Positions 34,689 to 56,033 of a stretch of 64,000 nt of DNA are shown here, piece after piece. Every line of letters starts with the position of its first letter. Within the stretch, counting starts at the first letter, position 1. The translations under genes were made by a program, and so were the position numbers. The stretch is from a virus, in IMG/VR virus record IMGVR_UViG_3300030031_000041, positions 2,764 to 66,763 of that record, one strand, 5' to 3'. The notes below the pieces were generated by a model. It was not told the DNA's origin, did not search any database, and saw only the letters and a program-made list of their open reading frames with translations.

Positions 34689-34776
34689 CCTTTTCTTACT
34701 GAATATAACTTTCCGATTATGTATAATATATGATGAAAATGTATGAAGCATCGGGTGAAAACTCGGTGCTTTTTTC
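34689..34776 (+). promoter_or_regulatory. late regulatory element copy A (CCTTTTCTTACTGAATA box, -10-like TATGTATAAT, leader hairpin + U-tract)
   Basis: one of three conserved copies; hairpin 34748-34769. Confidence 0.55.
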
Positions 34777-34802
34777 ATGCTCAAAAACAGGAGGTATAGG
34801 CA

Positions 34803-36290
34803 GTGGGAAGAAACAAAAGTAATTTTGTTGACCTATGCCAAGGCGATTTTGGCAGAAAAACTGCCTACACTGGCGTAGCTCAAATTACTACCGAAAATGT
34901 TGTTCAAGTTCTATCTGATACGATTGGTACACATAATCGAAACAGAATGATGATTAATTATCTTTATCGGTACTACAAAGGCGACCAACCAATCTTATAT
35001 CGGGAAAAGCTTGTGAGACCGGAAGTAAATAACAGAGTTGTCGAAAATCACGCTCTGGAAGTTGTCAAGTTTAAGGCAGGACAAATATATGGAGAACCTA
35101 TTCAATATGTCTGCAAAAAGAAAAAAGCAGATAAAAAGATAAATGAGCAGGTCGACTTGCTGAATGATTATCTGGACGAAGCAAATGCGGATGCCCGAAA
35201 TATTCAGCTTGGAATATACCAGAGTGCCGTAGGAACTGCATACAAGACAATTCTACGAGAAGACGATTGGACAAAAGACCGTGATTTACCACCATTTAGA
35301 ATTTTTATTCCGTATCCGGGAGATGTTTATATTGTTTATTCCAGAAACACAGGAAAAGCAATGCTTTCCGTGCAGATACTGAAAGATGAAGAGAATCAGC
35401 AGTATTATCTTTGCTATTCTTCAAATCAATATTTCAAGATAAAGAACGGACAAGTAACCGTCAGCGGCATTAATGGCTTTGGCGGAATCCCAATTATCGA
35501 GTATCCAAACAACCATGACCGGCTATCTGATGTCGAAATTGCAATTACAGCATTTGATGCGATCAACAAGTATCAGTCGGATAGATTAAACGGTGTTGAA
35601 CAGTTTGTTCAAGCATTTATGAAATTCAAAAACTGTGAAGTTGACGAGAATGAATTTTTGAAAATGGTCAAGCTAGGAGCAATATCTGTAAAAGATGCTG
35701 GAAACGGTGTTCAGTCAGATGTTGACTTGATGACTGCGGAATTAAACCAGTCGGAGAGCCAAGTTGCTAAAGACGACATTTACAATAATATGCTGATTGT
35801 AGAAGCAATGCCAAACCGCCAGAGCAACACCGGTGGTGATACTGGTAATGCTGTATATTTGCGTAATGGATGGGATTTTGCAGAGCGAGATGCAAAACTT
35901 GTTGAAGCATTTACAAAAGAAGCCGAAAAAGCTTCTGTCAGAATTATTCTCAACATCATTCGCAAAACCTCCAATGATGTCAAGATTTCTACCAGAGATT
36001 TTGATGTCAAAATCACCAGAAACCCAACAGATAACATGCTTGTTAAAGCACAGGCACTTGATTATCTGTTTAAGAATAAAATTCACCCGCTTATTGCATT
36101 GATTACTTGTGGATTATTCAGCGATCCGCAAAAGGTATATGAAATGAGCTTACCATATCTTGGAACTGTTTATCCCGAACTGGCAAACCCAGACGCAGAA
36201 ATGAAGAAAGCACAAGAATTGATTAAAGATTTTAGTCAGAAATCAATTCAAAATCAATCAGCAACAATTTCTTCCACTGGTGAAGAATAG
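34803..36290 (+). CDS. portal protein
   Basis: 495 aa after terminase; GTG start with RBS GGAGG. Confidence 0.7.
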   Translation: MGRNKSNFVDLCQGDFGRKTAYTGVAQITTENVVQVLSDTIGTHNRNRMMINYLYRYYKGDQPILYREKLVRPEVNNRVVENHALEVVKFKAGQIYGEPIQYVCKKKKADKKINEQVDLLNDYLDEANADARNIQLGIYQSAVGTAYKTILREDDWTKDRDLPPFRIFIPYPGDVYIVYSRNTGKAMLSVQILKDEENQQYYLCYSSNQYFKIKNGQVTVSGINGFGGIPIIEYPNNHDRLSDVEIAITAFDAINKYQSDRLNGVEQFVQAFMKFKNCEVDENEFLKMVKLGAISVKDAGNGVQSDVDLMTAELNQSESQVAKDDIYNNMLIVEAMPNRQSNTGGDTGNAVYLRNGWDFAERDAKLVEAFTKEAEKASVRIILNIIRKTSNDVKISTRDFDVKITRNPTDNMLVKAQALDYLFKNKIHPLIALITCGLFSDPQKVYEMSLPYLGTVYPELANPDAEMKKAQELIKDFSQKSIQNQSATISSTGEE

Positions 36291-36449
36291 ACGTTTTTAC
36301 ATCAATTATTTAAGGAATCTTGGAAAACTGAGATTCCTTTTTTAATACTCAAAAATATTGCAACAGCCCGTGAGCGCAAATCGGGTACAGATCATGTGCG
36401 GAGCGAACCGTGTGAACAAAGCGTGTTGGTCTGGAAGAAAGGAGATTTC

Positions 36450-37091
36450 ATGACAAGAGAACAGGCAAAACAAGTACTTATCGGTATGGGAATTGAGGAG
36501 CCGTCTGATGAACAGGTGTCTAAATACCTTGATTCCGTTACAGGAGAAGTAAAGAAAGAAAAAGACAAAAATGCTTCATTACAAGAAAAAGCCAACAAGG
36601 CAGCAGACCTTGAAAAAGAATTGGAAGAGCTGAAACAGCAGAATATGACAGACGCTGAGAAAGCAGAACTGGAACGCCAGAAAGAAAAAGCTGCAAACGA
36701 GAAAAGAATTTCTGACCTTGAATCCGCACTTGCAACTTCCCAGAGAGAAGCACTGACAGGAAAAATCACTTCCATTTTTGCTAATGCAGGAATGCAAGGT
36801 GATGCCTACGCAGGAGCAATCAAAGCATTTTCCAATATGAATAAAGAAGATGCACTCAAAGAAGCACAGACTTTTGTTGATGGAATTTCCGAAGTAAATA
36901 AAACAACTCTCGATACTGCAAAAGCTGCATGGGAAAAAGAAATCCTTGAAAACACGCCTAATCCGGGTGGTGGAGCTGGCGACAGTAACGAGACAAAGAA
37001 AAGTGATGCATCTGAATATGCAAAAGCGTACTCAGCAAGAATGAATCAAGAAGCCAAGGCAGCAGATGATAATGCCCCGGTAAATATTTAA
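36450..37091 (+). CDS. scaffolding protein
   Basis: coiled-coil, acidic, between portal and capsid. Confidence 0.6.
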   Translation: MTREQAKQVLIGMGIEEPSDEQVSKYLDSVTGEVKKEKDKNASLQEKANKAADLEKELEELKQQNMTDAEKAELERQKEKAANEKRISDLESALATSQREALTGKITSIFANAGMQGDAYAGAIKAFSNMNKEDALKEAQTFVDGISEVNKTTLDTAKAAWEKEILENTPNPGGGAGDSNETKKSDASEYAKAYSARMNQEAKAADDNAPVNI

Positions 37092-37113
37092 TTTTAGTAA
37101 AGGAGAAAAAGAT

Positions 37114-37458
37114 ATGGCTTTTATGAAAACTGAGCAGTATGAATCCAGACCTAACATCCTTGAATCTGAGGTTGGATTAGTACTCAAAACTTACACAGCA
37201 GATCAGACAAATGCTGAAACAGTTGGAACTAAGAAAATCATCAAAGCAGGTTCTGTATATCCGACAAATGCAACAGGCGCAATCGGCATTGTGTTTGAAG
37301 ATGTTGATATGACAGATGATGCTAAAAGACCGATTTCTGTGATTATTGCAGGTCGTGTTCTTGAAAAAAGACTCCCGGTAACAGTTGATGAAACTGCAAA
37401 AACTGAACTTGAGAAATCAGGTATCGTTTTTGTGGTCACAGAAGATCCAGTATATTAA
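37114..37458 (+). CDS. head-associated protein (decoration/minor capsid)
   Basis: position between scaffold and capsid. Confidence 0.45.
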   Translation: MAFMKTEQYESRPNILESEVGLVLKTYTADQTNAETVGTKKIIKAGSVYPTNATGAIGIVFEDVDMTDDAKRPISVIIAGRVLEKRLPVTVDETAKTELEKSGIVFVVTEDPVY

Positions 37459-37471
37459 GGAGGTATAACAA

Positions 37472-38506
37472 ATGCCATTTAATGTTTTAGAATCCATCAC
37501 AGAGGAAGAGAGACTTAATTTCTCCCAGAGTTTTGATGTAAAAAGACCTGGTATCCTTGATACTATTTTTCCAGATATAAAAACACAATATCTGAAAGCC
37601 GAATATTACAGACTTATGGCCGGACAGAGACTTCCAGAAGTAGCGTTTGTTCATGCTCTTGATACTGAAGCAGAAATCGGTACAAGACCAGGATTCGAAA
37701 AAGTACTGACTGAAAAACTTTTCATTAAAAGAAAAATCAATCAGTCTGAAAGATTACGTCAGGCAATCGAAAATGGTGTGCCGGACAACGAAGCACTGAA
37801 AAACTTTGTATTTGACGATGCAGCTAACCTGTTTGAAGGCGTTGTTGCAAGAGCAAATGTCATGAAAGGTCAGTTCCTTTCTACTGGTGCTGTAACAATC
37901 AAAGAAAATCATGTTGATATGGGAATCAATTATGGTGTTCCAGCAACTGCAAAAGTAACACTTACCAACTGGGCTACACCAGAAGCAGATATCATGGGAG
38001 ATATCCAGAAAATGGTAGCTGTAGCAGAAGACAATGGTTATGTAGTTAATAAAGCCCTTACTTCTCTCAAAATGATTAACTACATGAGAAATAACACTGC
38101 TATGCAGACAGCAGTTCTGGGAGCAGATAACAAACGTCTTCTGACAAAACAGGAACTTGCAAATCTGCTTATGCAGGAATACGGAATCACAATTGATCGT
38201 TGCGATGAGAAATTCCGCTTCAGAAAAGCAGATGGTTCTCTTAAAACAGGCAGATACTTCAAAGAAGATGTATTTACTCTGTATGAAGCAGATGCAAACG
38301 GTTCTTTCGGTACAGGACTCTGGGGCGTGACGCCTGAGGAACTTGAATACAGACAGTTCATTCAGGAAGAAAACCGTTCTTTCGTAACACTGTCCATGTG
38401 GGCTACACAGGATCCGGTTGCAGTATGGACAAAAGCGTCCGGTATATTCGTTCCGGTTGCTCCGAAAGCTAATGGCGGTATCGTTATCGGCACAAAGGGG
38501 GAATAA
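37472..38506 (+). CDS. major capsid protein
   Basis: 344 aa, position and composition typical of HK97-fold capsid proteins. Confidence 0.7.
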   Translation: MPFNVLESITEEERLNFSQSFDVKRPGILDTIFPDIKTQYLKAEYYRLMAGQRLPEVAFVHALDTEAEIGTRPGFEKVLTEKLFIKRKINQSERLRQAIENGVPDNEALKNFVFDDAANLFEGVVARANVMKGQFLSTGAVTIKENHVDMGINYGVPATAKVTLTNWATPEADIMGDIQKMVAVAEDNGYVVNKALTSLKMINYMRNNTAMQTAVLGADNKRLLTKQELANLLMQEYGITIDRCDEKFRFRKADGSLKTGRYFKEDVFTLYEADANGSFGTGLWGVTPEELEYRQFIQEENRSFVTLSMWATQDPVAVWTKASGIFVPVAPKANGGIVIGTKGE

Positions 38507-38523
38507 GCGGGCATAGTCTCAAT

Positions 38524-38709
38524 GTGAACAGCCAATCACCGTCTGTAGCAAGTGTTGAATCCGAAGAACCAACACATAAATACACAGAAAGTGAGCTGTC
38601 TAATATGACTGTACCACAGTTAAGGCAGCTTGCAAGTGATAATGGCTATGCCCTGACCTCAACAAATAAGGCTGGTATCATTTCTGAAATATTAACTCGG
38701 CAAGGGTAG
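38524..38709 (+). CDS. small protein with Rho-N/SAP-like motif
   Basis: TVPQLRQLASDNGYA. Confidence 0.4.
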   Translation: MNSQSPSVASVESEEPTHKYTESELSNMTVPQLRQLASDNGYALTSTNKAGIISEILTRQG

Positions 38710-38719
38710 GTGATTTTGG

Positions 38720-39046
38720 ATGAACGAAGAGCTTATAAACGATTTGGTAAACTATCTTACCGATGATACAGAATCACCTGAAATGATTTCTCTTGCCGTA
38801 AAACGGGCAATTCGTTCGTTCAAGAATAAGAGAAACTATCCTTCAAGTTATACAGATAAAAAAATAGATAGTGACATGGAAAAGTGCTATGATTGCATAT
38901 TTGATTTAGCCCTCTATTTTCTTGTGAAGCAGGGGGCTGAGTTCCAAGGAATACATTCTGAATCTTCTGTAAATAGAAGTTGGGAATCTGAAACTGAAAT
39001 TTATATTAATCATGGTGTTTTTCCTTTTGCTGGAAGTTTCAGTTAA
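38720..39046 (+). CDS. head-tail connector-like protein
   Basis: position after capsid. Confidence 0.45.
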   Translation: MNEELINDLVNYLTDDTESPEMISLAVKRAIRSFKNKRNYPSSYTDKKIDSDMEKCYDCIFDLALYFLVKQGAEFQGIHSESSVNRSWESETEIYINHGVFPFAGSFS

Positions 39047-39156
39047 AAAAGATGGGATGGAACGCAATGTGTTTTTCCTCCCGGCACGTTGCAGGGTTGC
39101 TCGTTAAAGTAGGGAAAGAGCAAAAATCTTATAGGGAGTGAAAGAAAGGAAAAGCG

Positions 39157-39468
39157 ATGGGATGTGAACATGAGTGCTTTAACAATCACCGCTTCGAAGA
39201 AATTGAAAAAAATATTCATGATATGCAGGAAAAGCAGTCTGAAAGACACAAGGAATTTTATTCTAGAATTAATAAACTCGAACAGAAGACTGCCCTGTAT
39301 AGCAATGACTTAGATCATATCAAAGAAACAGTCGATGAGATGAACAACAATTTAAAAATTCTCATGGCAGTCCCTGGCAAACGTTATGACACCATTATTG
39401 TATGCATTATAACAGCAGTCGTGGGAGCAGTTGTAGGATTTATGTTGAGCGGTGTATTTCCTATGTAA
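39157..39468 (+). CDS. XhlA-like membrane protein (coiled coil + C-terminal TM)
   Basis: 103 aa; C-terminal IIVCIITAVVGAVVGFMLSGVF. Confidence 0.45.
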   Translation: MGCEHECFNNHRFEEIEKNIHDMQEKQSERHKEFYSRINKLEQKTALYSNDLDHIKETVDEMNNNLKILMAVPGKRYDTIIVCIITAVVGAVVGFMLSGVFPM

Positions 39469-39507
39469 CAAATCGATTCCACTTGTAAGGGAGGACGGTG
39501 GAGTTAT

Positions 39508-39762
39508 ATGAATTATGCGGATTTTTCAGAAGATGAAAGAAAATTTTACTTGCAAGAAGCAGGTTTTGATTCACGTGAAGAAAAATTATTTCGATTACGG
39601 GCTTATGGCGAAAAAACATTATGGGAAGCATCTGAATTAATGGGGTACAGTCCCAGAACCATAGACCGAATCAATAGAAAAATAAAAAAGAAAATTACCA
39701 AAGTTGCCCCGATGTATATTCGGGGCTTTTCTTTGTATAATGGCGGAAATGTGGCGAAATAG
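39508..39762 (+). CDS. small HTH protein (sigma region 4-like)
   Basis: EASELMGYSPRTIDRINRKIKKKI. Confidence 0.45.
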   Translation: MNYADFSEDERKFYLQEAGFDSREEKLFRLRAYGEKTLWEASELMGYSPRTIDRINRKIKKKITKVAPMYIRGFSLYNGGNVAK

Positions 39763-39917
39763 TGACGTTCAAATACAGTGTTCCTTCCTATATAATATAA
39801 TCATAGGAGAAAACGTAATGATTATATTAAGAAACCCTTACGAGGGTATATGGGAAAAGCATCGTTCTATAGATGATATGGATATGATTCTTGAATCCCG
39901 GACAGGAGGAACAGATT

Positions 39918-40424
39918 ATGGCAGGTTATCCGTATTATCCGCAACAGCCAATGATGAGCAACCCTTACGGACAAATACAGCCGTATCAAGACAGGTTGGC
40001 ACAATTACAGAATAACTATCAACAGGCAATGCCATATGGACAAATGCAGATGCAGCAGCCTGTACAACAAATGCAGCAAATGCCAATGCTTCAAGGGCAG
40101 ATGGTTGATGGCATTGATACTGTAAAAGCAAAAGATGTAGATATGTCTGGAAATCCTGTTTATTATCCAAAAACAGATGGTACAGAAGTCTACAGGAAAC
40201 AATTACAAGCAGACGGAAGAAGCAAAATTTTTGTTTACCGACTTGTCAATCCAGAAGCAGAGCAGCAACAGGAAGAACCAAAGCAGGTTGATCTAGTTGC
40301 TATGATTAATCAGCTTCGAAACGATGTATGTGCTGAAATTTCTGGAATCAAAGACATGTTTCCGACATTTATATCGGGAACATCGGAGCCTGCAAAACAG
40401 CAGAACGGAGGTAAGCAGAGATGA
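39918..40424 (+). CDS. Gln/Pro/Met-rich low-complexity protein
   Basis: RBS AGGAGG before ATG 39918. Confidence 0.45.
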   Translation: MAGYPYYPQQPMMSNPYGQIQPYQDRLAQLQNNYQQAMPYGQMQMQQPVQQMQQMPMLQGQMVDGIDTVKAKDVDMSGNPVYYPKTDGTEVYRKQLQADGRSKIFVYRLVNPEAEQQQEEPKQVDLVAMINQLRNDVCAEISGIKDMFPTFISGTSEPAKQQNGGKQR

Positions 40425-40666
40425 ATTTCAGCCCAAACGCTATGATGAAAAAGCAATTCGAGAAAATGATTTCTCAGAGGTTCGGAAGTGTGGATAACAT
40501 GATGAACGATATGAGTAAATTTGCAGGAAACAATCCGACATTGAAAAATGCGTTGGATTTATACAAAAAAGGTGATGCAGACCAGCTACATCAAATACAA
40601 CAAAATGTATTCAATGAAAAACATTTATCTCCAGATGGAATTATCCAGAAATTCCTTGGATTATAA
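40421..40666 (+). CDS. hypothetical protein
   Basis: ORF track. Confidence 0.4.
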   Translation: MNFSPNAMMKKQFEKMISQRFGSVDNMMNDMSKFAGNNPTLKNALDLYKKGDADQLHQIQQNVFNEKHLSPDGIIQKFLGL

Positions 40667-40762
40667 CATTTCCCCATAATTGGGTGATTCAGAATCGCTA
40701 CAATTTGGGACGACAGCCGCGGATGTCTCCTATTGTAAATAATATTTAAGGAGACTAAAAAC

Positions 40763-41563
40763 ATGATGAATGGTTCAAATTACAGTCTTAGTGACATTGC
40801 TGCCGCTACAGGCTCTAATAATCGCGCCAATGATATGTGGGGCGGTGATGGCTTTTCACTTATCTGGCTTGTCTTGATCTTTGCTATCTTTGGATGGGGA
40901 GGTTTTGGCGGCTGGGGCGGCGGCTTCGGTGGCAATGGTGCAAATGGTGCAGGTTTCCAAGGATGGGCTACACGTTCCGATATCAATGAGGGATTTGCTC
41001 TTAATGATATCCAGAATGGTATTAGAGGTATTCAGCAGGGTATCTGCGATAGCACATATGCTCTCAACAATACCATGCAGAGTGGATTTAATGGCATGAA
41101 TGTTGGAATGCTCCAAGGCTTCAATGGAATTCAGCAGGCTATTAACGCTGATACTGTAGCAAACATGCAGAACACAAATGCATTACAGTCTCAATTAGCA
41201 AATTGTTGCTGTGAAACAAGAGAAGCTATCCAAGGTATCAACTACAACCTGGCAACCAACACTTGTGCTCTTCAAAACACAATGAACAACAATACCAGAG
41301 ATATTCTGGACAATCAGAACAGCAATACAAGAGCAATCCTTGATTTCTTGACGAATGATAAGATTGCAACATTGCAGGCAGAGAACTCTGATCTGAAGCG
41401 TGCTGCATCTCAGGATCGCCAGTCCGCGCTGATTGTAACTGAAATGAATGCACAGACGCAGCGATTAATCAATTCAATCAATCCATCCCCGATTCCTGCA
41501 TTTCAGGTACCGGCTCCGTATGCATACGCAGGATGCAACGGATATGGAAACGGTTGCTGCTAA
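40763..41563 (+). CDS. Gly/Asn-rich membrane protein with C-terminal Cys pair
   Basis: TM helix LIWLVLIFAIFGW then GGFGG repeats, ends CNGYGNGCC. Confidence 0.45.
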   Translation: MMNGSNYSLSDIAAATGSNNRANDMWGGDGFSLIWLVLIFAIFGWGGFGGWGGGFGGNGANGAGFQGWATRSDINEGFALNDIQNGIRGIQQGICDSTYALNNTMQSGFNGMNVGMLQGFNGIQQAINADTVANMQNTNALQSQLANCCCETREAIQGINYNLATNTCALQNTMNNNTRDILDNQNSNTRAILDFLTNDKIATLQAENSDLKRAASQDRQSALIVTEMNAQTQRLINSINPSPIPAFQVPAPYAYAGCNGYGNGCC

Positions 41564-41640
41564 GTAACTCGCCCTTAGAGGTTGACTAATTCTAAGAGGT
41601 GGGTTGCGGCTCACCTCTTATTTGATTGAGAGGTAGAAAT

Positions 41641-42066
41641 ATGAGTTGTAAAAATGTTTGTAAGCTCTGCAACCATCTTGTGATAAGCCAGTCTGTCGCA
41701 TTCACTGGTGGGAATCTTGTGGTTACACTCCCGGCAGGCAGTTATTCCAATGGAGAAAAGTATTGCATTGTTATCGCACAAAGCATACCAGAAGCCACTA
41801 CGATTACTGCCCCGGTAATGATTCAAATAGGAACAGGAACAACTTTGTATCCGCTAGAGAATCGTTGCTGCGCACAGGTTACAGCTTGTGGCGTAAGAAC
41901 CAGAACGAAGTACGCAACCAGAATAGCTACAAGTGCAACTGGTGGAGTATTCAAGATGCTAGGAAACCCGGCTTGTAGTCCGAGTAATAATTTAACTGCA
42001 ATTAATGGTACAGCCCCAACAACAGACACACCTGTTACACAGGCTGTTAGAAAGGGGGCACTGTAA
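41641..42066 (+). CDS. Cys-containing hypothetical protein
   Basis: ATG after GAGAGGTAG. Confidence 0.45.
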   Translation: MSCKNVCKLCNHLVISQSVAFTGGNLVVTLPAGSYSNGEKYCIVIAQSIPEATTITAPVMIQIGTGTTLYPLENRCCAQVTACGVRTRTKYATRIATSATGGVFKMLGNPACSPSNNLTAINGTAPTTDTPVTQAVRKGAL

Positions 42067-42692
42067 TGCATAAAGTTGCAATGGAAATGGGAAAATGGGC
42101 TATGGAAAAAGCCAAAACACATGGCTTCGATAATCTCAGTGCTCAAGACTGGGACGATCTGAAAGACTGCATGGAATCCGTAAAGTGTGCGATTTGTGCA
42201 GATAAAGATTACAGAATCGTAGAAGCTATGGACGAATGTGAACAGGAAGAGAAATATCTTGGACGCATGGGATATGACAGATATCGTTATGCAAACGGCA
42301 GATTTGCACCAAAAGGCAGAGGAAGCCGTATGGGATACAAGCCGTATCTGTACATGGAAGATGATGACTGGATGGAAGAGTATCTGAACAATCCAGAGTT
42401 CGAACGTAATATGTACCGCATGGGATATCATCCAGATCGTAGTGATATGAGAATGGATGGAATGAACCATAAGCAGTCCAGATATGGCGAAAGCTATGAC
42501 AGATACAGCGAGAATCGCAGGCATTACCATGATTCCAACGATACAGAATCTAAGAGAAAAATGGATGATTCCATGAAAGAGTACACATCTGACATTATCC
42601 GCAATCTTACTGAGATGTGGTCTGATGCAGATGCGACCCTTAGGCAGTCGATGAAAACCGACTTAACTCGTCTGATACAGCAGATGAATTGA
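42066..42692 (+). CDS. repeat-containing hypothetical protein (RMGY repeats)
   Basis: ORF track. Confidence 0.45.
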   Translation: MHKVAMEMGKWAMEKAKTHGFDNLSAQDWDDLKDCMESVKCAICADKDYRIVEAMDECEQEEKYLGRMGYDRYRYANGRFAPKGRGSRMGYKPYLYMEDDDWMEEYLNNPEFERNMYRMGYHPDRSDMRMDGMNHKQSRYGESYDRYSENRRHYHDSNDTESKRKMDDSMKEYTSDIIRNLTEMWSDADATLRQSMKTDLTRLIQQMN

Positions 42693-42761
42693 ATATGAAA
42701 TGAATTTTGCCCTTGTTACAGGAATGTAGCAGGGGCTTTTAATTGGAAATGGGGTATAAAC

Positions 42762-43010: not shown

Positions 43011-43016
43011 TAAACC

Positions 43017-46383: not shown

Positions 46384-46393
46384 AAACATAGCA

Positions 46394-46474
46394 CCTTTTC
46401 TTACTGAATATAACGTCTGTTTTATGTATACTGTAAGATATAAAAGCATCTACCGAAATGGTGGGTGCTTTTTC
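46394..46474 (+). promoter_or_regulatory. late regulatory element copy B
   Basis: box CCTTTTCTTACTGAATA, TATGTATACT, hairpin 46446-46468 + U-tract. Confidence 0.55.
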
Positions 46475-46501
46475 TATGCTCAAAACAAGGTGGTGACAGA
46501 G

Positions 46502-46903
46502 ATGCCAGATGTAGTAAAAAATCCAGTTTCAGACGTATTTGAAAGATGGAGAACAACTATTGAACCTGTTGTAGGAAAAGGTAACTTTTCTAATGATGAA
46601 AGCCAGACGGTAGCTTCAAACAAAAGGGTTTACGCACGTTTGTTCTTGCTTGGAAATCCAACATCACGTGGCAATCTTGAGGGGGATGAGTGCGCGACAA
46701 CGCCATCTTTCCAATCAGAATCCTATGCGGCTGGTTCAAAAGCTTCTTCAAAAGTATATGAAATTGACGATGCCAGCCACAAGGCCATGGTTGACATGGG
46801 GTTCCGTAGGATATACGGGCCCGTAAGACAGAATAATGCTGATAACAGCATAAAACGTGTTGTTAGCAGATATAGCCGGATATATACCGGCACATTACTC
46901 TAG
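46502..46903 (+). CDS. hypothetical structural protein
   Basis: ATG 46502 after AAGGTGGTG. Confidence 0.45.
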   Translation: MPDVVKNPVSDVFERWRTTIEPVVGKGNFSNDESQTVASNKRVYARLFLLGNPTSRGNLEGDECATTPSFQSESYAAGSKASSKVYEIDDASHKAMVDMGFRRIYGPVRQNNADNSIKRVVSRYSRIYTGTLL

Positions 46904-46920
46904 GAAAGGAGTGAAAAAAC

Positions 46921-47324: not shown

Positions 47325-47804
47325 ATGGCACGATTAACTACACTTGGTGTGAAATTTTCATATGCCGTTGAAACCGTGAAAGGCACAAAGCCTACCAAAT
47401 TCACACAGCTGGAAGAAGCCTCTTCCATTGGCGGCATTTCTCTTGAAACAGAACAGATTGACGTTTCTGCACTGGAAGATTATCTGACACAGTATGCAGC
47501 TGGTAGACAGGATACTGGTGGTACATGGGAAATTGAATTCATCATGGATCCAGACAAATCTGTTAAACAGATTAAAAAACTGTACGAAGATTCTAAAGCT
47601 GCAAAAACTACAGGACTGGCAACCTGGTTCCAGGTGTCATTCCCGGATATGTCCGACGCATTCTTTGTTATTGCGGAATGCGGTCGCGAAATTCCAATGC
47701 CAGAAATTGCACAGAACGAAGCAGCAACCATGTCTATTTCTCTTATCATCAATACATATAAGGGACTGGATACCAAAATTGAGCCGACAGCGGCTGCTGA
47801 ATAA
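47325..47804 (+). CDS. major tail protein
   Basis: 159 aa upstream of chaperone pair and tape measure. Confidence 0.55.
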   Translation: MARLTTLGVKFSYAVETVKGTKPTKFTQLEEASSIGGISLETEQIDVSALEDYLTQYAAGRQDTGGTWEIEFIMDPDKSVKQIKKLYEDSKAAKTTGLATWFQVSFPDMSDAFFVIAECGREIPMPEIAQNEAATMSISLIINTYKGLDTKIEPTAAAE

Positions 47805-47828
47805 GATGTAGATCAGGGAGGATAATTC

Positions 47829-48248: not shown

Positions 48249-48652
48249 GCTTTCCTGAGGTAGTCCATAAAAAACTACTTCCACTTTATTTGTCTATTGG
48301 CGTTTCTGAGGAAAAGTTTTGGGATTCCACACCGTATGATTTAGAACCATATATGGAAGCCTACAAATTAAAACAAAAAATGGCCGATTCGCAAGCATGG
48401 CAGTTCAACATGTACACGATGTGTGCAGTTCAGACTGCAGTTGCAAATGTGCTTATTGGCAAAAAGTCAAAGGCTGAATACCTTAAAGAACCATTTTCGC
48501 AAACAGCCGAAAAGCAAAAGCAAGAGGATGAAGAGAATCTTTCTGAAACAGAAAAGAAACGGCAACGTGACAGGTTGCTCATGACATTGCAACTCATGCA
48601 AGCAAATTTTGAGTTGAATCATGGTAATAATGACGAGGGCAGGCAGGATTAA
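48164..48652 (+). CDS. gpGT-like frameshift extension of tail chaperone
   Basis: frame 2 open across overlap; ORF track 48290..48652. Confidence 0.5.
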   Translation: MRHAESDGRSREESESNQNATGSQEEELSFPEVVHKKLLPLYLSIGVSEEKFWDSTPYDLEPYMEAYKLKQKMADSQAWQFNMYTMCAVQTAVANVLIGKKSKAEYLKEPFSQTAEKQKQEDEENLSETEKKRQRDRLLMTLQLMQANFELNHGNNDEGRQD

Positions 48653-48679
48653 AAGTCTTGTCTGCCCTTTATTTTTTTG
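48637..48679 (+). terminator. intrinsic terminator
   Basis: GGGCAGGCAG..CTTGTCTGCCC stem then TTTATTTTTTT. Confidence 0.5.
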
Positions 48680-48698
48680 ATTAAAAGGAGGTGCTTTA

Positions 48699-50273
48699 AT
48701 GGCCGATAATACCATAGATACCCTCAATATACAAATAGACAGTAGCACAACTCAGGCGGTACGGTCTATTAATAACCTTGTAAAAAAATTAGATACATTA
48801 AACACTGCCCTTGGAAATCTTGACATAAGCCGGTTAAATAATTTTTCCAATTCTTTAAAAAGTTTAGGTAGCGTGAATTTTAAAGCAAATGGATTGAATG
48901 CGGCTATAAACGCTATCAATCGTCTTGGAAAATCCGATTTCAGTCAGTTTGATACAGGGAAATTAGGCAAAATTCTTACTGAGATGCAGAAACTTGATGC
49001 TATTCCAGATGTTTCTCCGAGCGTTAGCCGGTTTACAACCGCTATAGCTAAACTTGCCGGTACAGGACAGTATATCGGCAATGTATCAAAGGAACTTCCG
49101 AATCTTGCGACAGGTTTAAATAATGCGGCTACTAAATTAGGCTCTATGAGTGAAGTATCAGCATCCACCAATGCCTTTATTACTTCTCTTGGAAAATTAG
49201 CTGGTGCAGGAGATAAAACTGGAAAGACTGCAAGTCAATTATCAACTCTCGCGCAAGAGGTTTTGAAGTTTTTTGACGTAATGAAAAGTGCACCAGATAT
49301 CAGTTCGAGCACAATAAGAATGACAGAAGCTCTTGCAGTATTAGCATCGTCTGGAAGCAAAGTAGGGCGTGCCACAAGTATCGTTTCGAATTCATTTAAC
49401 ACGCTTTCTTCGTTAGGTTCAAAAGCAAGTACTGTAATCAATGGGCTGACAAATGCTTTTCAAAAATTTGCTTCAAAAGCTATTTCTTTAGGCGGAAAAG
49501 CCGTATCTGCAATCGCAGGTATTGGAAATGCATCTTCTGAAGCTGGTGAAAAAATAAGAAGATTGTCAAATCCTCTGAGTTCGGTAACGAATAAGTTGAG
49601 TGCTCTTTACGCCAAAGGTTTTCTCGCAAAAAGAGCATTAGATGTTCTGGCATCGCCAGTAGAATCCGCAATGAACTATGTAGAGACTCTGAACTATTTC
49701 AACTCTGCGTTCAATCAGGTGGCAGAAGGAATCAACACTGACGAATGGAAAAAAAGTGGCATAAAATCCGCTGAAGCATATGCAAATTCATTCCAGGAAA
49801 GGGCAAAACAGCTTTCACAGAAACTGACAGGATTCGAAATTTCAGATACTGGTGAACTGGCTAGAACCAATACCGCTAGTCTTGGACTTGACCCAGAAAA
49901 AACAATGCAGTATCAGGCAACATTTGCACAGATGGCATCATCTATGGGCGATACATCAGAGACTGCATTAAAATTGTCTAATGCACTCACTATGATTGGT
50001 GCAGATCTTGCTTCTGTAAGAAATATGGACTTCGAGGATGTATGGCAGGACATGGCATCTGGCTTGACTGGTATGAGCCGCGCTATGGATAAGTACGGCA
50101 TTAATATCCGTAATGCCAACATGCAACAGGAACTGTATAATCTTGGGATTAATACCAGCATATCGAAGTTGTCTCAGGCAGATAAAACGATTTTGAGAAC
50201 GATTATCTTGCTAAACAACTCTAAGTATGCATGGGCTGATTTGTCAGAAACGATAAATAGGTCAGTAGCGTGA
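48699..50273 (+). CDS. tail tape measure protein, 5-prime part (exon 1 candidate)
   Basis: 524 aa Ala/Ser/Leu-rich helical; ends DLSETIN.. just before intervening sequence. Confidence 0.65.
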   Translation: MADNTIDTLNIQIDSSTTQAVRSINNLVKKLDTLNTALGNLDISRLNNFSNSLKSLGSVNFKANGLNAAINAINRLGKSDFSQFDTGKLGKILTEMQKLDAIPDVSPSVSRFTTAIAKLAGTGQYIGNVSKELPNLATGLNNAATKLGSMSEVSASTNAFITSLGKLAGAGDKTGKTASQLSTLAQEVLKFFDVMKSAPDISSSTIRMTEALAVLASSGSKVGRATSIVSNSFNTLSSLGSKASTVINGLTNAFQKFASKAISLGGKAVSAIAGIGNASSEAGEKIRRLSNPLSSVTNKLSALYAKGFLAKRALDVLASPVESAMNYVETLNYFNSAFNQVAEGINTDEWKKSGIKSAEAYANSFQERAKQLSQKLTGFEISDTGELARTNTASLGLDPEKTMQYQATFAQMASSMGDTSETALKLSNALTMIGADLASVRNMDFEDVWQDMASGLTGMSRAMDKYGINIRNANMQQELYNLGINTSISKLSQADKTILRTIILLNNSKYAWADLSETINRSVA

Positions 50274-50570
50274 TAAATGCGTAGCTACTGGCAAGTCGCT
50301 CATATCGAAACCGTCAAGTAGGATATGAGTTATTAGTGATGAAATAAGCTGGAAAGCCGTTTGCAACGGTAATCAGAGAGTGAAGGCTATGATTAAAAGC
50401 ATAGTCAACCGCAACGCGTAGGAAGTGAAACTGTAGTTGAGATACTACAGAATATAATCTTCCCAAGAGGCATCACTATCGGACGGTACAGGTGCAGAGC
50501 CTGTGGTAAAAAGGTACGCTGGACATGCATTGTAATAATGCAGAAGTGAGGATAAAAAGCCTTACGATAA
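50257..50570 (+). other. 314-nt intervening sequence (group I intron candidate) flanked by 7-bp repeat ACGATAA
   Basis: removal joins 48699.. frame to 50564.. frame exactly; highly structured, multiple stops. Confidence 0.5.
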
Positions 50571-53500
50571 CAAATCGAAATCAACCGGCAAATCAGATTC
50601 GTATGCTTCAATCTAACTTTGCATCCCTTGGTAGAACAATAGGTTCCTTATTCATTCCTATACTGCAAACAGTACTTCCATATATCAATGCAATAGTAAT
50701 CGCAATACAAAGAATGTTCGCTTATATTGCAAAACTTCTTGGAATCAAACTGTCAAACTTCGTATCATCTACTGGTGGTATTTCTGTAGATACCGGAGAT
50801 ATTGCAGATAATATGGATAATGCCAGTGGCGCAATTGATACAGCAAATTCTAATGCTAAAAAACTTGAAAAAACATTATCTGTTATGTCCTTCGATGAAC
50901 TGAATCAGCTCAACGATAACTCTGATTCTAGCAGCTCAACTACTCCGTCTTCTGGTTCTGGAACAGGCGGTTTGGGGCATATCGGAGCACTTGACGCAGC
51001 TTTGGACGATGCTTTATCTGCTTATCAAAAAGCATGGGACGAAGCATTCAAGAAAATGTCCAACAGAGCAAATGAGATGGCAGATGCTATCGTGAATGCC
51101 TTTAAGAGAAAAGACTGGAAAGGTCTTGGAAAAATCATGGCTGACGGCATTAACTGGGGAATGCAAAAGCTTTATGATTTCATTAACTGGAATAACGTAG
51201 GCCCTTACATCACTAAATTCACCAGTGCGTTCACCCAGACTTTCAACAGCCTTGTTGATAATATCAACTGGGATTTGATGGGACGTACCGTTGGAGCTGG
51301 TATGAATACTATTGTAAATACTGCAAACCAACTTCTGGAAGGAATCGACTGGAAGAACCTTGGTGCTAAATTTGCCAATGGTATCACTGGCCTTGTTCGT
51401 GAAGTGAATTGGGAAAACTTCGGCAATCTGCTTGGAAATTCCTTTATGCGTGGATGGGATATTTTCTCAGGCTTCGTAGAAAATCTCCAGTACGGAGAAA
51501 TTGGAACAGCTGTCGCAGAAGGCTTGAACGGAATCTTTGAAAAGATTAATTTCGGTGAAATTGCTCATACACTTGCAACTGGATTGAATGGTGCTTTTGA
51601 TACATTGGCTTCATTTACAGCAAGCTTTAATTGGGAAAATCTTGTTGATAACATTACAAATGGAATCACCACATTCATGCAAGAATTCAACTGGAAAGAG
51701 AATGGACAGAAGTTAGAAGAATTTATTAACAAATTACTCACGTCACTTATCGAGATTGCAAGGGGTGTCGATTGGGAAGCGTTTGGACACAATGTAGGCG
51801 TATTCCTCAGTGAAATTGACTGGGGAAAACATCTTGCACAGTTACTTACGGTTATCGGAGACGTTCTTGGTGGAATCTGGGAAGGACTTGGAACAACATC
51901 TGCCGGCACATTTGTTCAAGCTATGGCTGTATTTGCAGTTGGTAATAAGCTCATGCCATTAGTTGATACAATTACTAAGTTTTTTACAGGTGATACTGTA
52001 TTTGGAAATCTTTCTAAAGCTGTACGAGGTATGCTGAGTCCCGCAATCACAGAAGCAGTCTCAACAACTATTCCGGCTCTTGGGACATCGTTAGGCTCAC
52101 TTGTTGCAACTGGTGGTGGAATTGCTCTTGCAGTAGATGGTGCAGTATTACTTACCAAGAAATTAGCAGGACTTTTTGAGACCATGCAAGGTGGTAATGG
52201 AATGACTACACAGTATGGTGGTTATCTCCATGATTACGCAACACAGCTGACTGATGTAGCAAATCTTACAAACGATCAATCGGAAGCGTTGTGGCAGCTT
52301 ATTGAGAAGGATGAAGAACTTGGAAAAACTCACGATGAAATGTACTCTGATATGGTTGAAAAATTGAAAGAGTATGGCGTTTCATCCGATCAGGCTAGAA
52401 CAGCTCTTGAGCAGTATGGCGCACAGGCCGGTGTATCGGCTGAATTTGTTGAGGGTATGACTAATCAAATCTCCGCACTTGGAGATGGCGTGTCAGAAGC
52501 AGCTGGTAAATTCGATACATCAAAAATCAGTATTTCGGATTTGAAAGACGAGCTATACTTATTGAGTCTGAAATCTGACGATTTTGGTGGTTCATACAAA
52601 ACAGCCATGGACGAACTTGATAATGCTAATAATGGTGGAACTATCACAAATACCAAAGATGCATTAGATACAGTCTACACTTCATTGAAGAATGCAGGAG
52701 TTCCACTCGATGAACTGAACAACAAACTTGCAAAAGACTTCCCGAACGCTACGTTAGCCACAAAATCAGCAGTAGACAAGAATATTGTTGGAGCACAGCA
52801 GACTATATCAACATCAGTTGGACAGGCATCAAGAGACACTCAAACAGCCACAAATCAAATGGCAAAAAATGCCACAGATGATTTCTCGGAAATCCAGAAA
52901 CAGGCTGATACTTACATGAAAGGCATGGAAACTACAACTACTAGCTCATGGGGAAATTCTTCCAGAGAAGCGACATTAAAGGCAAGGGAGATGAAAAATG
53001 CCGTAAGTACAGAACTTGGAAATATGGACAAATCTGTAACAAGCCATTTCCAAAGTCAGTACAACATTGCTTATAAGAAATGGGAGAATATCGGAAGAGA
53101 TATCTCTTCTTATGTTTCTGGAAGTATGTCAAAGAGTATGGATAGCTCTTTAAATAGCTTTATGAGAACTATTCGCAGCGCATTCAGTGATATGTACAGC
53201 ATTGGCCATAATGCGGCTCAATCATTAAGAAATGGAATGAAATCCGTGAGAATGCCTACGCTTTCGTATTATATTTCTCAGTGGAAAACACATAGCCTTG
53301 GGAACGGCGGTACCAGTTCAACCCCTGTCTATAGTCCGAACTGGTATGCAAAAGGTGGTTTGTTCAAAAATGCATCTGTCATTGGTGTAGGCGAAGCAGG
53401 ACAGGAAGCTGTTCTCCCTTTGGAAAATCGTAAAGCCATGAAATCCATTGCCGACAGCATCATGTCCGGCTATGACGGCAACATGGGACTTACGAAAGAT

Positions 53501-53683
53501 GAGATCATGGAAGCTGTCGAGCGTGGCGTAGTTACTGCTTTGATGAACAATGGTGGTTTTGGCGGTTCTTCACCAGAGTACATCATGAACAGCATCAAAG
53601 TGAACGAGCGTGAACTGGCGCGAATTGTCACAAAGGCTCAGAACAACACAGATTACCGCATGAATCCGTCCCCGGCATATTGA
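50571..53683 (+). CDS. tail tape measure protein, 3-prime part (exon 2 candidate)
   Basis: continues TMP core motif PANQIRMLQ..LGRTIGSLFIPIL; 1000+ aa. Confidence 0.65.
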
Positions 53684-53739
53684 TTTTTGCGGTAGAATTT
53701 GATATACTAAACGAGAAATAGTTATTACATTTGTTGAAG

Positions 53740-53802
53740 AGAGCACACTAAAGATGAAACGAGGGAAAAACCTCACGATTCTTTGGTGTGCTCTTTTTTT
53801 TG
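53740..53802 (+). terminator. intrinsic terminator after tape measure
   Basis: AGAGCACAC/GTGTGCTCT stem then TTTTTTTT. Confidence 0.55.
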
Positions 53803-53829
53803 TTTGGTAAAGCAAAGAGAAAGGTATTT

Positions 53830-54039
53830 ATGAAACCGTATGGATTAGTTGATAAGAAAATTTTATTTAACAACAATTTATCTCTTGAAGCCAAGGGAAT
53901 TTATGGACTTATAATGAGCTTTGATAGTGAAAGAATTAATGTAGAGGAAATTTATAAATTATCATTAGAAGATAAAGAGGTTGTTGACAGAGCCATAGAT
54001 GAATTGCAATCACACGGCTATGTCTTTATTGAAAAATAA
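53830..54039 (+). CDS. small winged-helix-like protein
   Basis: ATG 53830; LSLEAKGIYGLIMSF. Confidence 0.4.
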   Translation: MKPYGLVDKKILFNNNLSLEAKGIYGLIMSFDSERINVEEIYKLSLEDKEVVDRAIDELQSHGYVFIEK

Positions 54040-54172
54040 TTTTGGTAAAACCAGTAGGCTAGGGTAGCTCCCGAAAAGTGTAATTCCATGATACACCTGC
54101 CTACTGTTTTTATAAATCATGGATCTGTGGCTACAAGGCAGTCACGCATTAACGACATGGAGGTTATCTATT

Positions 54173-55333
54173 ATGAGCGAACAAATCAAAGAATTATCCC
54201 AAAATGAATTAGAAAGAAAAGTAGATTACATATTTTCACATAGATTTAATCACACTCTGCATGCTTATATCGATATTGCAGGTGATTTAACAGCAGGTGT
54301 TTTATTATCTCAAATTATGTACTGGTTTGATAAAGATTCAAAAAATGAGTGCGTCAGAACAAAAATCAAAAAGAAAGGTTATTTTTGGATTGCTAGGCGT
54401 AGAGATGAATGGGCAAACGAAATAAGAGTTGCACCTAAGCAGTATGATTCTGCGATGAAAAAATTAAAAGCTAGAAATTTGGTAGTTGTTGAAAAATTTA
54501 AAATTAATGGTGCTCCAACAACGCATATCAGACCTAATGATGAAGTAATAAATGTTGCTATTAAAGAATGGAAAGAACAAATTGCTCTTGAAATTATCAA
54601 AGACAACGAAGCGGAACAAAGTGACGTGAATTCCTCAAATCAGAATTTACCAGAAGAGGAAAATCACGAAAAAGTAGTGCCAAATGATGATAAACACTGG
54701 TTTTCCCCAAAAGAGGAATTTCCAAATTCCCAAAACAAGGAAAACCATGGAATTTCCCAAAATGGGAAAATGGAACTTCCCCAAAATGGAAACTCTTTAA
54801 TTAATAAGAACTATAATAAAGATTTAGATGAGGTTTATAAAAAGAGGGTTAAAGATTCTGATACTACTAAAGTAGTACCAGTAGATTCTCCATGTCCGGG
54901 TAAGCCGGAAACAAGGAGCATCCAGTCTCCACTCGGAATGGGAATAAGCGAAATCCTTTTGAGGAAAGGAATAAACCAATATTGGAATGATGTAGGATGC
55001 GAAGAGTATGAAGAATTGAAAACAAATGTCACTAATGTCATATTATATTTTTTGGAAAAATACAAAATTAAACTAGGCAAAAGCCATGTTCATTTAAAAG
55101 AAGAATATATAAAAACCGTAGTAGAAGGAATTGTTACAGTACCAGACGAGATGATTGAGTTGATAGATGCTTATGGCTTTGAGTATATTTATAAATCATG
55201 CATTGACATGTATTTTGATACAAAATTCAGAGAAGATACCAATTATCGTATTTTTCATTTCATAAAAGGTGATATTAGGAAAAATATTGCAATGAAACTT
55301 TCAGACCAAATAGAGTTGATAAGCGATAAATAA
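54173..55333 (+). CDS. replication-initiator-like protein (inserted module)
   Basis: RBS GGAGG before ATG 54173; N-terminal wHTH-like region, Asn/Lys-rich middle. Confidence 0.45.
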   Translation: MSEQIKELSQNELERKVDYIFSHRFNHTLHAYIDIAGDLTAGVLLSQIMYWFDKDSKNECVRTKIKKKGYFWIARRRDEWANEIRVAPKQYDSAMKKLKARNLVVVEKFKINGAPTTHIRPNDEVINVAIKEWKEQIALEIIKDNEAEQSDVNSSNQNLPEEENHEKVVPNDDKHWFSPKEEFPNSQNKENHGISQNGKMELPQNGNSLINKNYNKDLDEVYKKRVKDSDTTKVVPVDSPCPGKPETRSIQSPLGMGISEILLRKGINQYWNDVGCEEYEELKTNVTNVILYFLEKYKIKLGKSHVHLKEEYIKTVVEGIVTVPDEMIELIDAYGFEYIYKSCIDMYFDTKFREDTNYRIFHFIKGDIRKNIAMKLSDQIELISDK

Positions 55334-55477
55334 AAACGAATAGTTCCTGTGGCAACAGGCAATTAAAACGAGCCAAAATCCATTTAAAATACCGTAGGTG
55401 ATAACTTCTTCACGTAAACGATTCAAATTGATTCTGACTTAAAATAATACAGTAATTAATTAGAAAGTGAGAAAGAA

Positions 55478-55807
55478 ATGAGTAGACTTGGAAAAGAAAT
55501 GCCGGCAGAGTATTCTGACCGATTTGATGAACTGAGGCAAAACCGGTGCGAAACAAGCTTTTACAAATACGGCACGGCAAAAGATAATTTTGGAGAACGT
55601 CTGGTAAATGCGATTGAATCACACGATATGTGCATTAAAAAATATAAAGAAACTGGTAACACGGAGTATCTTTGCGATGCTGCGAATTATCTGATGTTCG
55701 AATTTATGTATCCACAAATCGAAGGTGCTTATTTCAAAGCAACCGACAGTGGGAAAAGTGCCGGAGTAGTTGGAACACCAATTAATCAGTTAAAGGAGAA
55801 ATGGTAG
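55478..55807 (+). CDS. hypothetical protein
   Basis: ORF track. Confidence 0.45.
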   Translation: MSRLGKEMPAEYSDRFDELRQNRCETSFYKYGTAKDNFGERLVNAIESHDMCIKKYKETGNTEYLCDAANYLMFEFMYPQIEGAYFKATDSGKSAGVVGTPINQLKEKW

Positions 55808-55912
55808 GATGAAAAAATCGGGCAATTCTTATGGGAAACACGGATTATGAATCATTTTGCAAAGAGCACTTCGAAAGATTCATTTCTGATATCCAAAAGA
55901 AACATTAATATA

Positions 55913-56033
55913 ACTTTTTCTTACTGAATCTCACCTTGTATATGTGATAGAATAAAGAATCATAAAGCGTCTATCAGAGCGATAGGCGCTATTTTCGTGT
56001 AATTAAGCATCTTCTTTCGGGAAGGTGCTTTTT
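55913..56033 (+). promoter_or_regulatory. late regulatory element copy C
   Basis: box CTTTTTCTTACTGAAT, TATATGTGATAGAAT, hairpin 56006-56027 + U-tract. Confidence 0.5.

Follow-up and report, generated by a model that had tools for sequence, protein, structure and literature searches.

A putative promoter-terminator cassette, present in three copies, heads the late gene modules of a gut phage and may be read through with the help of an adjacent LtrB-type regulator

Introduction

Transcriptional regulators of the Ltr type (RinA, ArpU, LtrA, LtrB and LtrC) turn on the packaging and lysis genes of many Gram-positive phages, and thereby also govern transduction and the mobilisation of pathogenicity islands. 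RinA was described earlier, and ArpU, LtrA, LtrB (the DUF1492 family, named LtrB by Quiles-Puchalt et al. 2013) and LtrC have all been found to be required for expression of the late operon (PMC3753634). In the ltr gap the binding site lies right after the ltr stop codon, and a terminator blocks read-through from Pcad unless Ltr is present (PMC3152322, PMC3753634). The published regulator-dependent 5' ends of phi11 and phi55 lie downstream of the terminator, 23-28 nt before terS (PMC3152322, PMC3753634). The original work left the mechanism open: the site bound by RinA is over 155 bp upstream of the 5' end that was mapped, and a terminator lies between the two (Ferrer 2011, PMC3152322). Here we describe a compact control element that stands in three copies in a 64,000-nt stretch of phage DNA (the window; positions 2,764 to 66,763 of IMG/VR virus record IMGVR_UViG_3300030031_000041), each copy comprising a conserved box, a -10-like hexamer and a leader with a hairpin and T-tract directly before a late gene. 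We put at roughly 80% the probability that these cassettes are late promoters linked to a regulator, each with a terminator in its leader; that the protein encoded next to copy 1 regulates read-through of these terminators has, on the sequence evidence, somewhat under an even chance.

Results

All three cassettes lie on the + strand between 34.6 and 56.1 kb of the window, in intergenic DNA and in the orientation of the genes, with 11.7 kb from copy 1 to copy 2 and 9.5 kb from copy 2 to copy 3 (Table 1). They stand before the portal and head, the tail, and the baseplate and lysis blocks, respectively, where they directly precede the ribosome-binding site (RBS) of the portal gene, of a tail-module gene and of the Dit-like gene. 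A preliminary description of this DNA had proposed three copies, each with a conserved box, and direct reading of the sequence bears out both points: the 14-mer TTTTCTTACTGAAT occurs exactly three times in the 64 kb and on the + strand only (34691, 46396 and 55916), where shuffled sequence is expected to hold 0.01 occurrences and none of 100 shuffles held three. Searches with the core heptamers found no additional composite site in the 64-kb window. Downstream of the box the -10 hexamer matches TATAAT at 6/6 positions in copy 1 and at 5/6 in both copy 2 (TATACT) and copy 3 (TG-extended TAGAAT). The -10 motif TATGTATAaT first ascribed to every copy is thus right for copies 1 and 2 (TATGTATAAT and TATGTATACT) and wrong for copy 3, whose extended hexamer lies one base farther from the box; relatives carry TGATATAAT, TGATAAAAT or TGGTACAAT at this -10 with the spacing unchanged. 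The -35 position reads CTGAAT, which matches 3/6 of the consensus over a spacer of 17-18 bp (CTGAAA, 4/6, in other clades), and a generic promoter scan did not list the copies because its rule requires at least 4/6 in each hexamer.

A second -10-like hexamer (4-5/6 match) follows 4-10 nt past the -10 in 19 of 20 leaders, with a mean best match of 4.45/6 against 3.83 ± 0.15 in shuffles (0/5000), a post hoc comparison on related AT-rich sequences; it is a possible sigma-dependent pause element. Behind the T5-6 tract copies 1 and 2 have (C/CT)ATGCTCAAAA in common and copy 3 lacks ATGCTCAAAA, which confines the proposed cATGCTCAAAA leader motif to the first two copies. We ruled out a leader peptide from the ATG of CATGC, as read by eye it had no RBS and its frame was inconsistent across copies and phages.

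The four leader hairpins, of which copy 3 carries two, fold at -13.5 to -17.6 kcal/mol with z of -4 to -7, and their stems of 8-10 bp and loops of 3-7 nt accord with an intrinsic terminator, for which a stable, G+C-containing stem of about 5-14 bp and a short loop are expected. The U-tract is likewise present, as T6 in copy 1, T5 in copy 2, T5-C-T4 behind the second hairpin of copy 3 and a weaker TATTTT behind the first. Every stem quoted in the preliminary description was correct and gave a stable fold followed by T5-T6, and the AAGCATC hairpin with its U-tract was found in all three copies as claimed, with an additional upstream hairpin in copy 3 (55967-55989) that had been missed. In copy 3 the RBS begins 3 nt past the tail of the second terminator (GAGG at 56041, ATG at 56051), which leaves no room for another promoter. 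A generic terminator scan flagged both copy-3 hairpins and missed those of copies 1 and 2, likely because its stem extension pairs the upstream A-run with part of the T-tract.

More than 60 close relatives of this phage (genomes of ~77-81 kb) are present in IMG/VR, and in them copy 1 is almost invariant (64 loci); these near-invariant sequences carry little covariation information, and more distant clades were therefore needed. Our covariation set comprised 21 distinct orthologous or paralogous hairpins over eight lower pairs. Standard pairs fill 97.6% of the cells, none of 500 shuffles equalled the observed pairing or covariation score, and sliding the partner columns gave a pairing of 33-68%. 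Pairs 1-2 are invariant, pairs 3-5 show three pair types each and pairs 6-9 show four to six standard types each, with one A·C mismatch. The compensatory stem changes reported earlier are therefore real both within the window, at pairs 6-9, and in the wider set. In fact copy 1 alone has at least nine different upper stems among its orthologues (for example GCACCGG/CCGGTGC, GCACCGAT/ATCGGTGC, GCATTCGG/CCGAGTGC and GCACTGAGG/CCTTGGTGC), those of copy 2 in other clades include the variant stem GCATCTGC/GCAGGTGC, and the first hairpin of copy 3 is kept in a distant clade with a longer loop. In one distant clade the second hairpin of copy 3 has been swapped for an unrelated stem (AACGTCC/GGGCGTT), again with a T-run, and the U-tract is retained in all orthologues. 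That structure and U-tract are kept while the sequence varies is the signature of an intrinsic terminator and not of a sequence-specific RNA, and the terminator features, the covarying stems and the retained T-tract are best explained structurally by the original suggestion that the late leaders contain an intrinsic terminator or attenuator. The hairpins carry every sequence feature of intrinsic terminators and would be expected to terminate transcription, and that of copy 1 would also end the terL-regulator transcript.

A riboswitch-like alternative fold was ruled out, as both the minimum free energy and the centroid structures retain the terminator hairpin in all leaders. No family in Rfam 15 matched at gathering score, and permissive thresholds gave only sub-threshold matches of 16-21 bits to unrelated small RNAs (sRNAs).

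One further terminator-like hairpin of this kind follows the portal gene; it has no box-type promoter behind it, and the major head gene lies downstream. In this region (36291-36395; 11998-12160 of L184 and 8642-8800 of L186, two related loci cited by our handles) the tail TTTTTTAATACTCAAAAA of the hairpin resembles CATGCTCAAAAA of copies 1 and 2, and a further conserved non-coding stretch of ~100 nt comes behind it, ahead of the next head gene; this stretch reads …TATTGCAACAGCCCGTGAGCGyAAATCGGGTACAG… and might represent one more leader RNA element.

Clades whose regulator is 45-54% identical to that of the window keep the order of terL, regulator, a gap of ~110 nt and portal. Within the gap they have an ACTGAA-centred box, TATAAT exactly 18 nt on, a -10-like hexamer ~6 nt farther, a hairpin with the conserved base AAGCAyy…rrTGC, T5-6, in most cases CATGC, and the RBS. 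Copies 2 and 3 are also found at orthologous positions in these clades, and the ACTGAA-N18/19-TAnAAT spacing is constant across all of them. The variant of the box is common to the copies of one phage and differs by phage type (CTTACTGAAT(A/C)T(A/C)AC in the window; CATACTGAA(A/T)CATAC, or CATACTGAAACATAC, in other clades), as would be expected of the recognition site for a phage-encoded factor. A collection-wide scan for the 14-mer box returned mostly chance matches, and protein-anchored loci were used instead; these have the box at orthologous positions, which answers the question raised in the preliminary description of whether related phages share it.

The phage itself appears to be an uncultured, possibly virulent gut phage. 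Its G+C content is 39%. A search of 185,579 species-representative genomes with the regulator as a single-protein query detected no prophage copy, and positions 34000-38000 gave only one nucleotide-level match in the GenBank phage collection, to a 6.2-kb contig of human faecal origin that carries no annotation (83.7% identity). Among annotated large terminases the closest, at 41.7% identity, is that of Clostridium phage Maintenon of [Clostridium] innocuum.

The gene directly upstream of copy 1, previously put forward as a candidate activator, appears to encode a DUF1492/LtrB-type protein with a sigma-region-4-like domain, of a family experimentally shown to control late operons (PMC3753634). 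The 140-residue protein has a long N-terminal helical hairpin and a C-terminal helix-turn-helix (HTH) similar to sigma-70 region 4, as also seen in its AlphaFold model, where the long hairpin is followed by a three-helix HTH (predicted local distance difference test score, pLDDT, 82.8). Among PHROG profiles it matches phrog_36 'transcriptional regulator' (4e-19) and, weakly and over the HTH only, the 'Q-like' phrog_79 (E 5e-5). Its score against Pfam DUF1492 (PF07374) is 20.5 bits where the cut-off is 21.5; among 17 aligned homologues DUF1492 is matched by 15 (best 1e-9) and Sigma70_r4 by 13, and the database homologues, most of them called at 140 aa, carry a precomputed PF07374 annotation. 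A PDB profile search with the regulator found only parts of sigma-factor regions 3/4, and fold searches only sigma-4 domains and generic coiled coils. The arrangement of stop codon, adjoining site and gap hairpin (Table 1) is that of LtrB-type loci (PMC3753634), with its synteny kept in relatives.

The second candidate activator in the preliminary description, the 84-aa protein of the head module, holds up as a stand-alone sigma-region-4-like protein: it has only an HTH resembling sigma-70 region 4 (TIGR02937, E 1e-6, profile positions 116-163), and homologues occupy the same place in the head module of distant relatives. A terminator-like hairpin (39706-39726, followed by TTTTCTTT) lies inside the 3' end of its gene.

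Regulators of ~30% identity occur in Streptococcus Javan630 and Javan191, in Erysipelothrix phi1605, in records from Ruminococcus and other gut Clostridia ('Ca. Heliusvirales'), and in Gardnerella vB_Gva_AB1, among others. In most of the gaps read behind these genes the parts are arranged in the same way: repeats or a box come first, then a -10 resembling TATAAT, a further -10-like hexamer after 5-10 nt, a strong hairpin (-16 to -23 kcal/mol), a T-tract that carries (C/T)(T/A)TGCC, an RBS and lastly the first gene of the late block, in most cases HNH. The distant leaders align to copies 1 and 2 of the window via G(G/T)GCTTTTyyyATGCC, their stems covary as well, and the YATGC(C) motif after the T-tract is kept even in distant LtrB-type phages. 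The rinA-terS gap of phi11 is ordered in the same way, with repeats just after rinA, TATTAT-N7-TAGGAT, a 9-bp hairpin and T6.

In vB_Gva_AB1 (L504, 1043-1110) and in L508 (971-1010) three to four direct repeats TGGCAT(G)/TGGCAC stand right after the regulator stop codon, and the post-terminator motif CATGCC/ATGCCA is the reverse complement of these repeats, a symmetry not seen in the window's phage family. The notion that YATGCC is in general an inverted copy of the upstream repeats was rejected, as it fits vB_Gva_AB1 and NatCom_27610 (TGGCAT/ATGCCA) and fails in the window and in most other phages.

With regard to the surrounding genes, copy 1 is preceded by the terminase-regulator operon and not by core late structural sequence, copy 2 by a stretch whose gene content differs between clades, and copy 3 by a cassette slot that varies in content even between close relatives. 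The copies thus lie at module borders and probably restart late transcription past variable inserts. A minus-strand island at 41.6-43.0 kb in our first greedy map of open reading frames (ORFs) was an artefact; the gene calls of L184 support + strand ORFs at 41626-42066 and 42066-42692 instead, and the late region is thus one co-directional block. Just behind copy 1, the 5' leader of portal (34776-34802) exists in three mosaic variants among near-identical relatives (L120-L182), and the sequence before copy 3 (55888-55911) in two (L339-L403), so that the conserved cassettes coincide with recombination junctions between modules.

The slot between the tape measure gene and copy 3 (53684-55911) is variable, and relatives L339, L341, L347, L392 and L393 hold unrelated genes there. 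In the window it contains an HTH protein (53788-54039), the int-alpA RNA motif RF02996 (54052-54122, 54 bits), a DnaD/replication-initiator-like protein (54119-55333) and a 109-aa ORF; the int-alpA segment (~54040-54179) is ~86% identical even in a distant clade, as if it headed exchangeable cassettes. The two tape-measure ORFs match consecutive parts of phrog_28918 (positions 1-195 and 198-914) and are separated by a gap of 251 nt, and the split could be due to an intron, an insertion or a frameshift, or could be a true split. Farther upstream, in the early/middle region, six tRNA genes (Gln, three Met, Tyr and Ser; 25931-27688) surround a full-length ROOL RNA (RF03087, 26920-27477, 384 bits).

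Table 1. Coordinates of the three cassettes, their parts and neighbouring genes in the window
Feature	Position	Strand	Remarks
Large terminase	32568-34262	+	
140-aa regulator gene	34264-34686	+	stop codon 34684-34686; ACTGAA core 11 nt downstream of stop
Copy 1	34687-34787	+	
Copy 1 box, 23-mer CACCTTTTCTTACTGAATATAAC	34687-34709	+	core ACTGAA 34698-34703 at the -35 position
Copy 1 -10 hexamer TATAAT (within TATGTATAAT)	34722-34727	+	TATAAT kept in orthologous elements
Copy 1 second -10-like hexamer GAAAAT (relatives TGTAAT)	34735-34740	+	would fall at ~+1 to +10 of transcript
Copy 1 hairpin GCATCGGGT-GAAA-ACTCGGTGC + T6	34748-34775	+	-16.8 kcal/mol, z -7.3
Motif CATGCTCAAAAA after copy 1 T-tract	34776-34787	+	followed by RBS GGAGG 34790-34794 and portal GTG 34803
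Portal	34803-36290	+	GTG start
Terminator-like hairpin after portal gene	36313-36344 (36313-36338 + T6)	+	conserved, covarying stem in L184, L186
Major head protein	37472-38506	+	
84-aa protein	39508-39762	+	sigma-region-4 match only
Copy 2	46392-46485	+	
Copy 2 box, same 23-mer CACCTTTTCTTACTGAATATAAC	46392-46414	+	
Copy 2 -10 hexamer TATACT (within TATGTATACT)	46427-46432	+	
Copy 2 second -10-like hexamer TATAAA	46439-46444	+	
Copy 2 hairpin GCATCTACC-GAAAT-GGTGGGTGC + T5	46446-46473	+	-17.6 kcal/mol
Motif CTATGCTCAAAA after copy 2 T-tract	46474-46485	+	followed by ATG 46502
Gene of unknown function	46502-46903	+	ATG start
Major tail protein	47325-47804	+	
Tape measure protein, two ORFs	48699-50273 and 50525-53683	+	
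Inserted cassette	53788-55807		
Copy 3	55912-56038	+	
Copy 3 box AACTTTTTCTTACTGAATCTCAC	55912-55934	+	
Copy 3 extended -10, TGTGATAGAAT region	55944-55953	+	hexamer TAGAAT 55948-55953, 19 nt after ACTGAA
Copy 3 first hairpin GCGTCTATC-AGAGC-GATAGGCGC, tail TATTTTCG	55967-55997	+	stem-loop 55967-55989; -15.1 kcal/mol
Copy 3 second hairpin GCATCTTC-TTTCGG-GAAGGTGC + TTTTTCTTTT	56007-56038	+	-13.5 kcal/mol
Dit-like DUF6711 protein	56051-56413	+	ATG start
1322-aa tail protein	56417-60385	+	
Endolysin	60965-62440	+	

Discussion

Taken together, these observations suggest that each cassette is a late promoter whose own leader encodes a terminator. The phage-type-specific, ACTGAA-centred box would serve at -35, 18-19 nt before a near-consensus sigma-A -10, with transcription predicted to start ~7 nt past the -10 hexamer, and the transcript would encode, within its initial ~15-50 nt (~85 nt for copy 3), one intrinsic terminator, or two in tandem in the case of copy 3. 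The RBSs of the portal, tail and baseplate genes directly follow the T-tracts, and all late expression must therefore cross these terminators. We propose that they may act as gates or insulators against polymerase arriving from the terL-regulator operon (copy 1) or from the variable cassettes (copies 2 and 3), and that a polymerase started at the box with the DUF1492/LtrB-type protein bound there might become terminator-resistant, in a promoter-coupled antitermination similar to that of lambda Q. The second -10-like hexamer would then be a possible site of sigma-dependent pausing and of loading. The conserved terminator behind the portal gene, with no promoter behind it and a head gene downstream, further argues that the late polymerase is terminator-resistant.

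Several points weigh against this proposal. The start position, termination, binding of the regulator to the box and the read-through mechanism are all things that we infer. The enrichment of the second hexamer is post hoc and comes from related AT-rich sequences that are not all independent. The regulator does not belong to the Q families (PF03589, PF06530 and PF06323; PF06530 scores 16-17 bits where the cut-off is 26), and fold searches with it returned no Q structure. Four related loci of one clade (L391, L392, L394 and L402) have the box and -10 of copy 3 without a leader hairpin, the distant phage L498 has no hairpin either, and Javan191 has a hairpin that lacks the T-tract. Fully processive antitermination would make the three promoters redundant in part. 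Moreover, Ltr proteins have been published as activators, with Ltr-dependent 5' ends downstream of the terminator (PMC3152322), and the mapping method used for 80alpha is specific for 5'-triphosphate ends (PMC3152322). 

In the literature available to us, searches found nothing relevant that links Ltr, RinA or ArpU proteins to antitermination. In our analysis the published phi11 data, that is the binding site, the gap terminator and the distant RinA site, are equally compatible with read-through and with activation.

The alternative that survives best, and that we consider possible if on the whole unlikely, is that these are plain activator-dependent promoters with a passive hairpin. The DUF1492 protein would only recruit RNA polymerase to the box and -10, with no dedicated antitermination, and the hairpin would be the terminator and 3'-end stabiliser of the upstream unit, and locally a leaky attenuator and a 5'-proximal stabilising stem-loop. 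Such a role would agree with the description of Ltr proteins as activators (PMC3753634, PMC3152322), and a -35 match of 3-4/6 is typical of promoters that depend on one; three separate promoters would also suit non-processive transcription, one clade does without the hairpin in copy 3, and a hairpin that begins ~5-15 nt from the predicted start is near enough to act as a 5' stabiliser in Bacillota. However, the hairpins are canonical strong terminators (8-10 bp, T5-T6), copy 3 places a tandem pair of them directly before the RBS of an essential gene, and their T-tract, which a stabiliser does not need, is conserved everywhere. In addition, the order of promoter before terminator is uniform over many independent lineages, and a conserved terminator also lies ahead of the major head gene.

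Considerably less probable is a regulator-dependent start downstream of the hairpin, as in phi11 and phi55, with the box acting at a distance and the upstream TATAAT not being the late promoter. This idea draws on the published 5' ends of the staphylococcal phages, which lie past the terminator (PMC3152322, PMC3753634), and on the conserved T-rich YATGC behind the hairpin, which in copies 1 and 2 stands 27-28 nt ahead of the start codon, but it is impossible for copy 3, where the RBS lies 3 nt past the terminator tail and the mRNA would lack it. Nor is there a recognisable -10/-35 pair in or after the hairpin, and the conserved TATAAT with its fixed 18-nt spacing to ACTGAA would be left unexplained.

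We give little credence to the cassettes being genes for trans-acting short RNAs of ~45-85 nt that run from promoter to terminator, comparable to the lambda 6S transcript. Each cassette does have the shape of a promoter and terminator unit, and the weak, sub-threshold Rfam matches are sRNAs with terminators, but the 5' segments left unpaired are short and vary from copy to copy, the place directly before late-gene RBSs is conserved, and no RNA family was found at gathering score. Least probable of all is a selfish or neutral dispersed repeat (such as a miniature inverted-repeat transposable element, MITE, or a repetitive extragenic palindrome, REP) or a non-transcriptional DNA signal such as a packaging site or replication origin, since three scattered copies with inverted repeats at mosaic junctions of variable modules might suggest one, but they share the orientation of the genes, are always intergenic directly before an RBS at positions orthologous across clades, and have a conserved promoter geometry and stems that change by compensation and not by decay.

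Returning to the proposed read-through, we can at present only speculate, and tentatively so, that the DUF1492/LtrB branch as a whole, and perhaps RinA-type proteins as well, have the promoter-terminator-YATGCC leader as their conserved target, and that such 'activators', as they have been called since 2011-2013, are promoter-loaded antiterminators, functional counterparts of lambda Q with a sigma-region-4 fold. If true, this would explain why binding sites lie upstream of the terminator and far from the mapped 5' ends, and it would mean that a gut phage has triplicated the device as a means of restarting and insulating late transcription behind variable cassettes. In the window and its relatives the control region is compact, repeated and strongly conserved, with promoter-like parts upstream of terminators that abut the RBSs of essential genes, and it is this compact layout that makes Q-like read-through a concrete hypothesis. 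A putative late promoter motif and three predicted late units (head; tail; baseplate and lysis) are hereby defined for an abundant family of uncultured human-gut phages of ~77-81 kb.

Comparison with known systems

The C-dependent promoters of phage Mu (Plys, PI, PP and Pmom) and the MotA-dependent middle promoters of T4 have an activator box in place of the -35. Similar to the cassettes described here, these are several dispersed promoters with a box at about -35 to -30 and a good -10, each heading a block of late genes; however, their proteins are unrelated to ours, and they are without a conserved leader terminator. In the lambdoid Q/PR'/tR' system there is likewise a regulator gene directly upstream, a near-consensus -10, a regulator site within the promoter, a -10-like hexamer in the initially transcribed region (the place of a sigma-70-dependent, promoter-proximal pause in lambdoid phages) and an intrinsic terminator soon after, these three being predicted in our case, and more terminators inside the late operon. 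The differences are that our protein falls outside the Q families, with HTH similarity that is sub-threshold only, that there are three cassettes and not one, and that the putative terminator here would lie at ~+15 to +50 and thus much nearer the start than the lambda late terminator at +194. HK022 put, the EAR element and conAn of pLS20 (PMC8191782) resemble our leaders in being structured RNAs encoded directly behind a promoter, at the head of a long operon that contains terminators, whereas they act via conserved sequence and shape and are not themselves terminators; here the stems vary freely and a T-tract follows each, as in a plain terminator.

The Ltr control regions (PMC3152322, PMC3753634) share with ours a regulator, here apparently of the DUF1492/LtrB type, a recognition site (predicted in our case) right after its stop codon, a terminator (here a putative one) between the regulator and the first late gene and an RBS ~25 nt after that terminator, and the phi11 gap has the same order of parts. 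Unlike in those regions, the regulator here lies between terL and portal and not before terS or HNH, three control regions ~11.7 and 9.5 kb apart take the place of a single late promoter, and a single ACTGAA-centred box stands at -35 in place of 7-nt direct repeats far upstream; in addition, the literature places the terminator before the promoter. Each ingredient is already known by itself: late promoters that are dispersed and carry an activator box, regulators of the Ltr type, and terminators close to a promoter that are read by antiterminators. What appears to be new is their combination, its triplication, and a leader whose conservation spans the DUF1492 branch, in phages whose hosts belong to different bacterial phyla.

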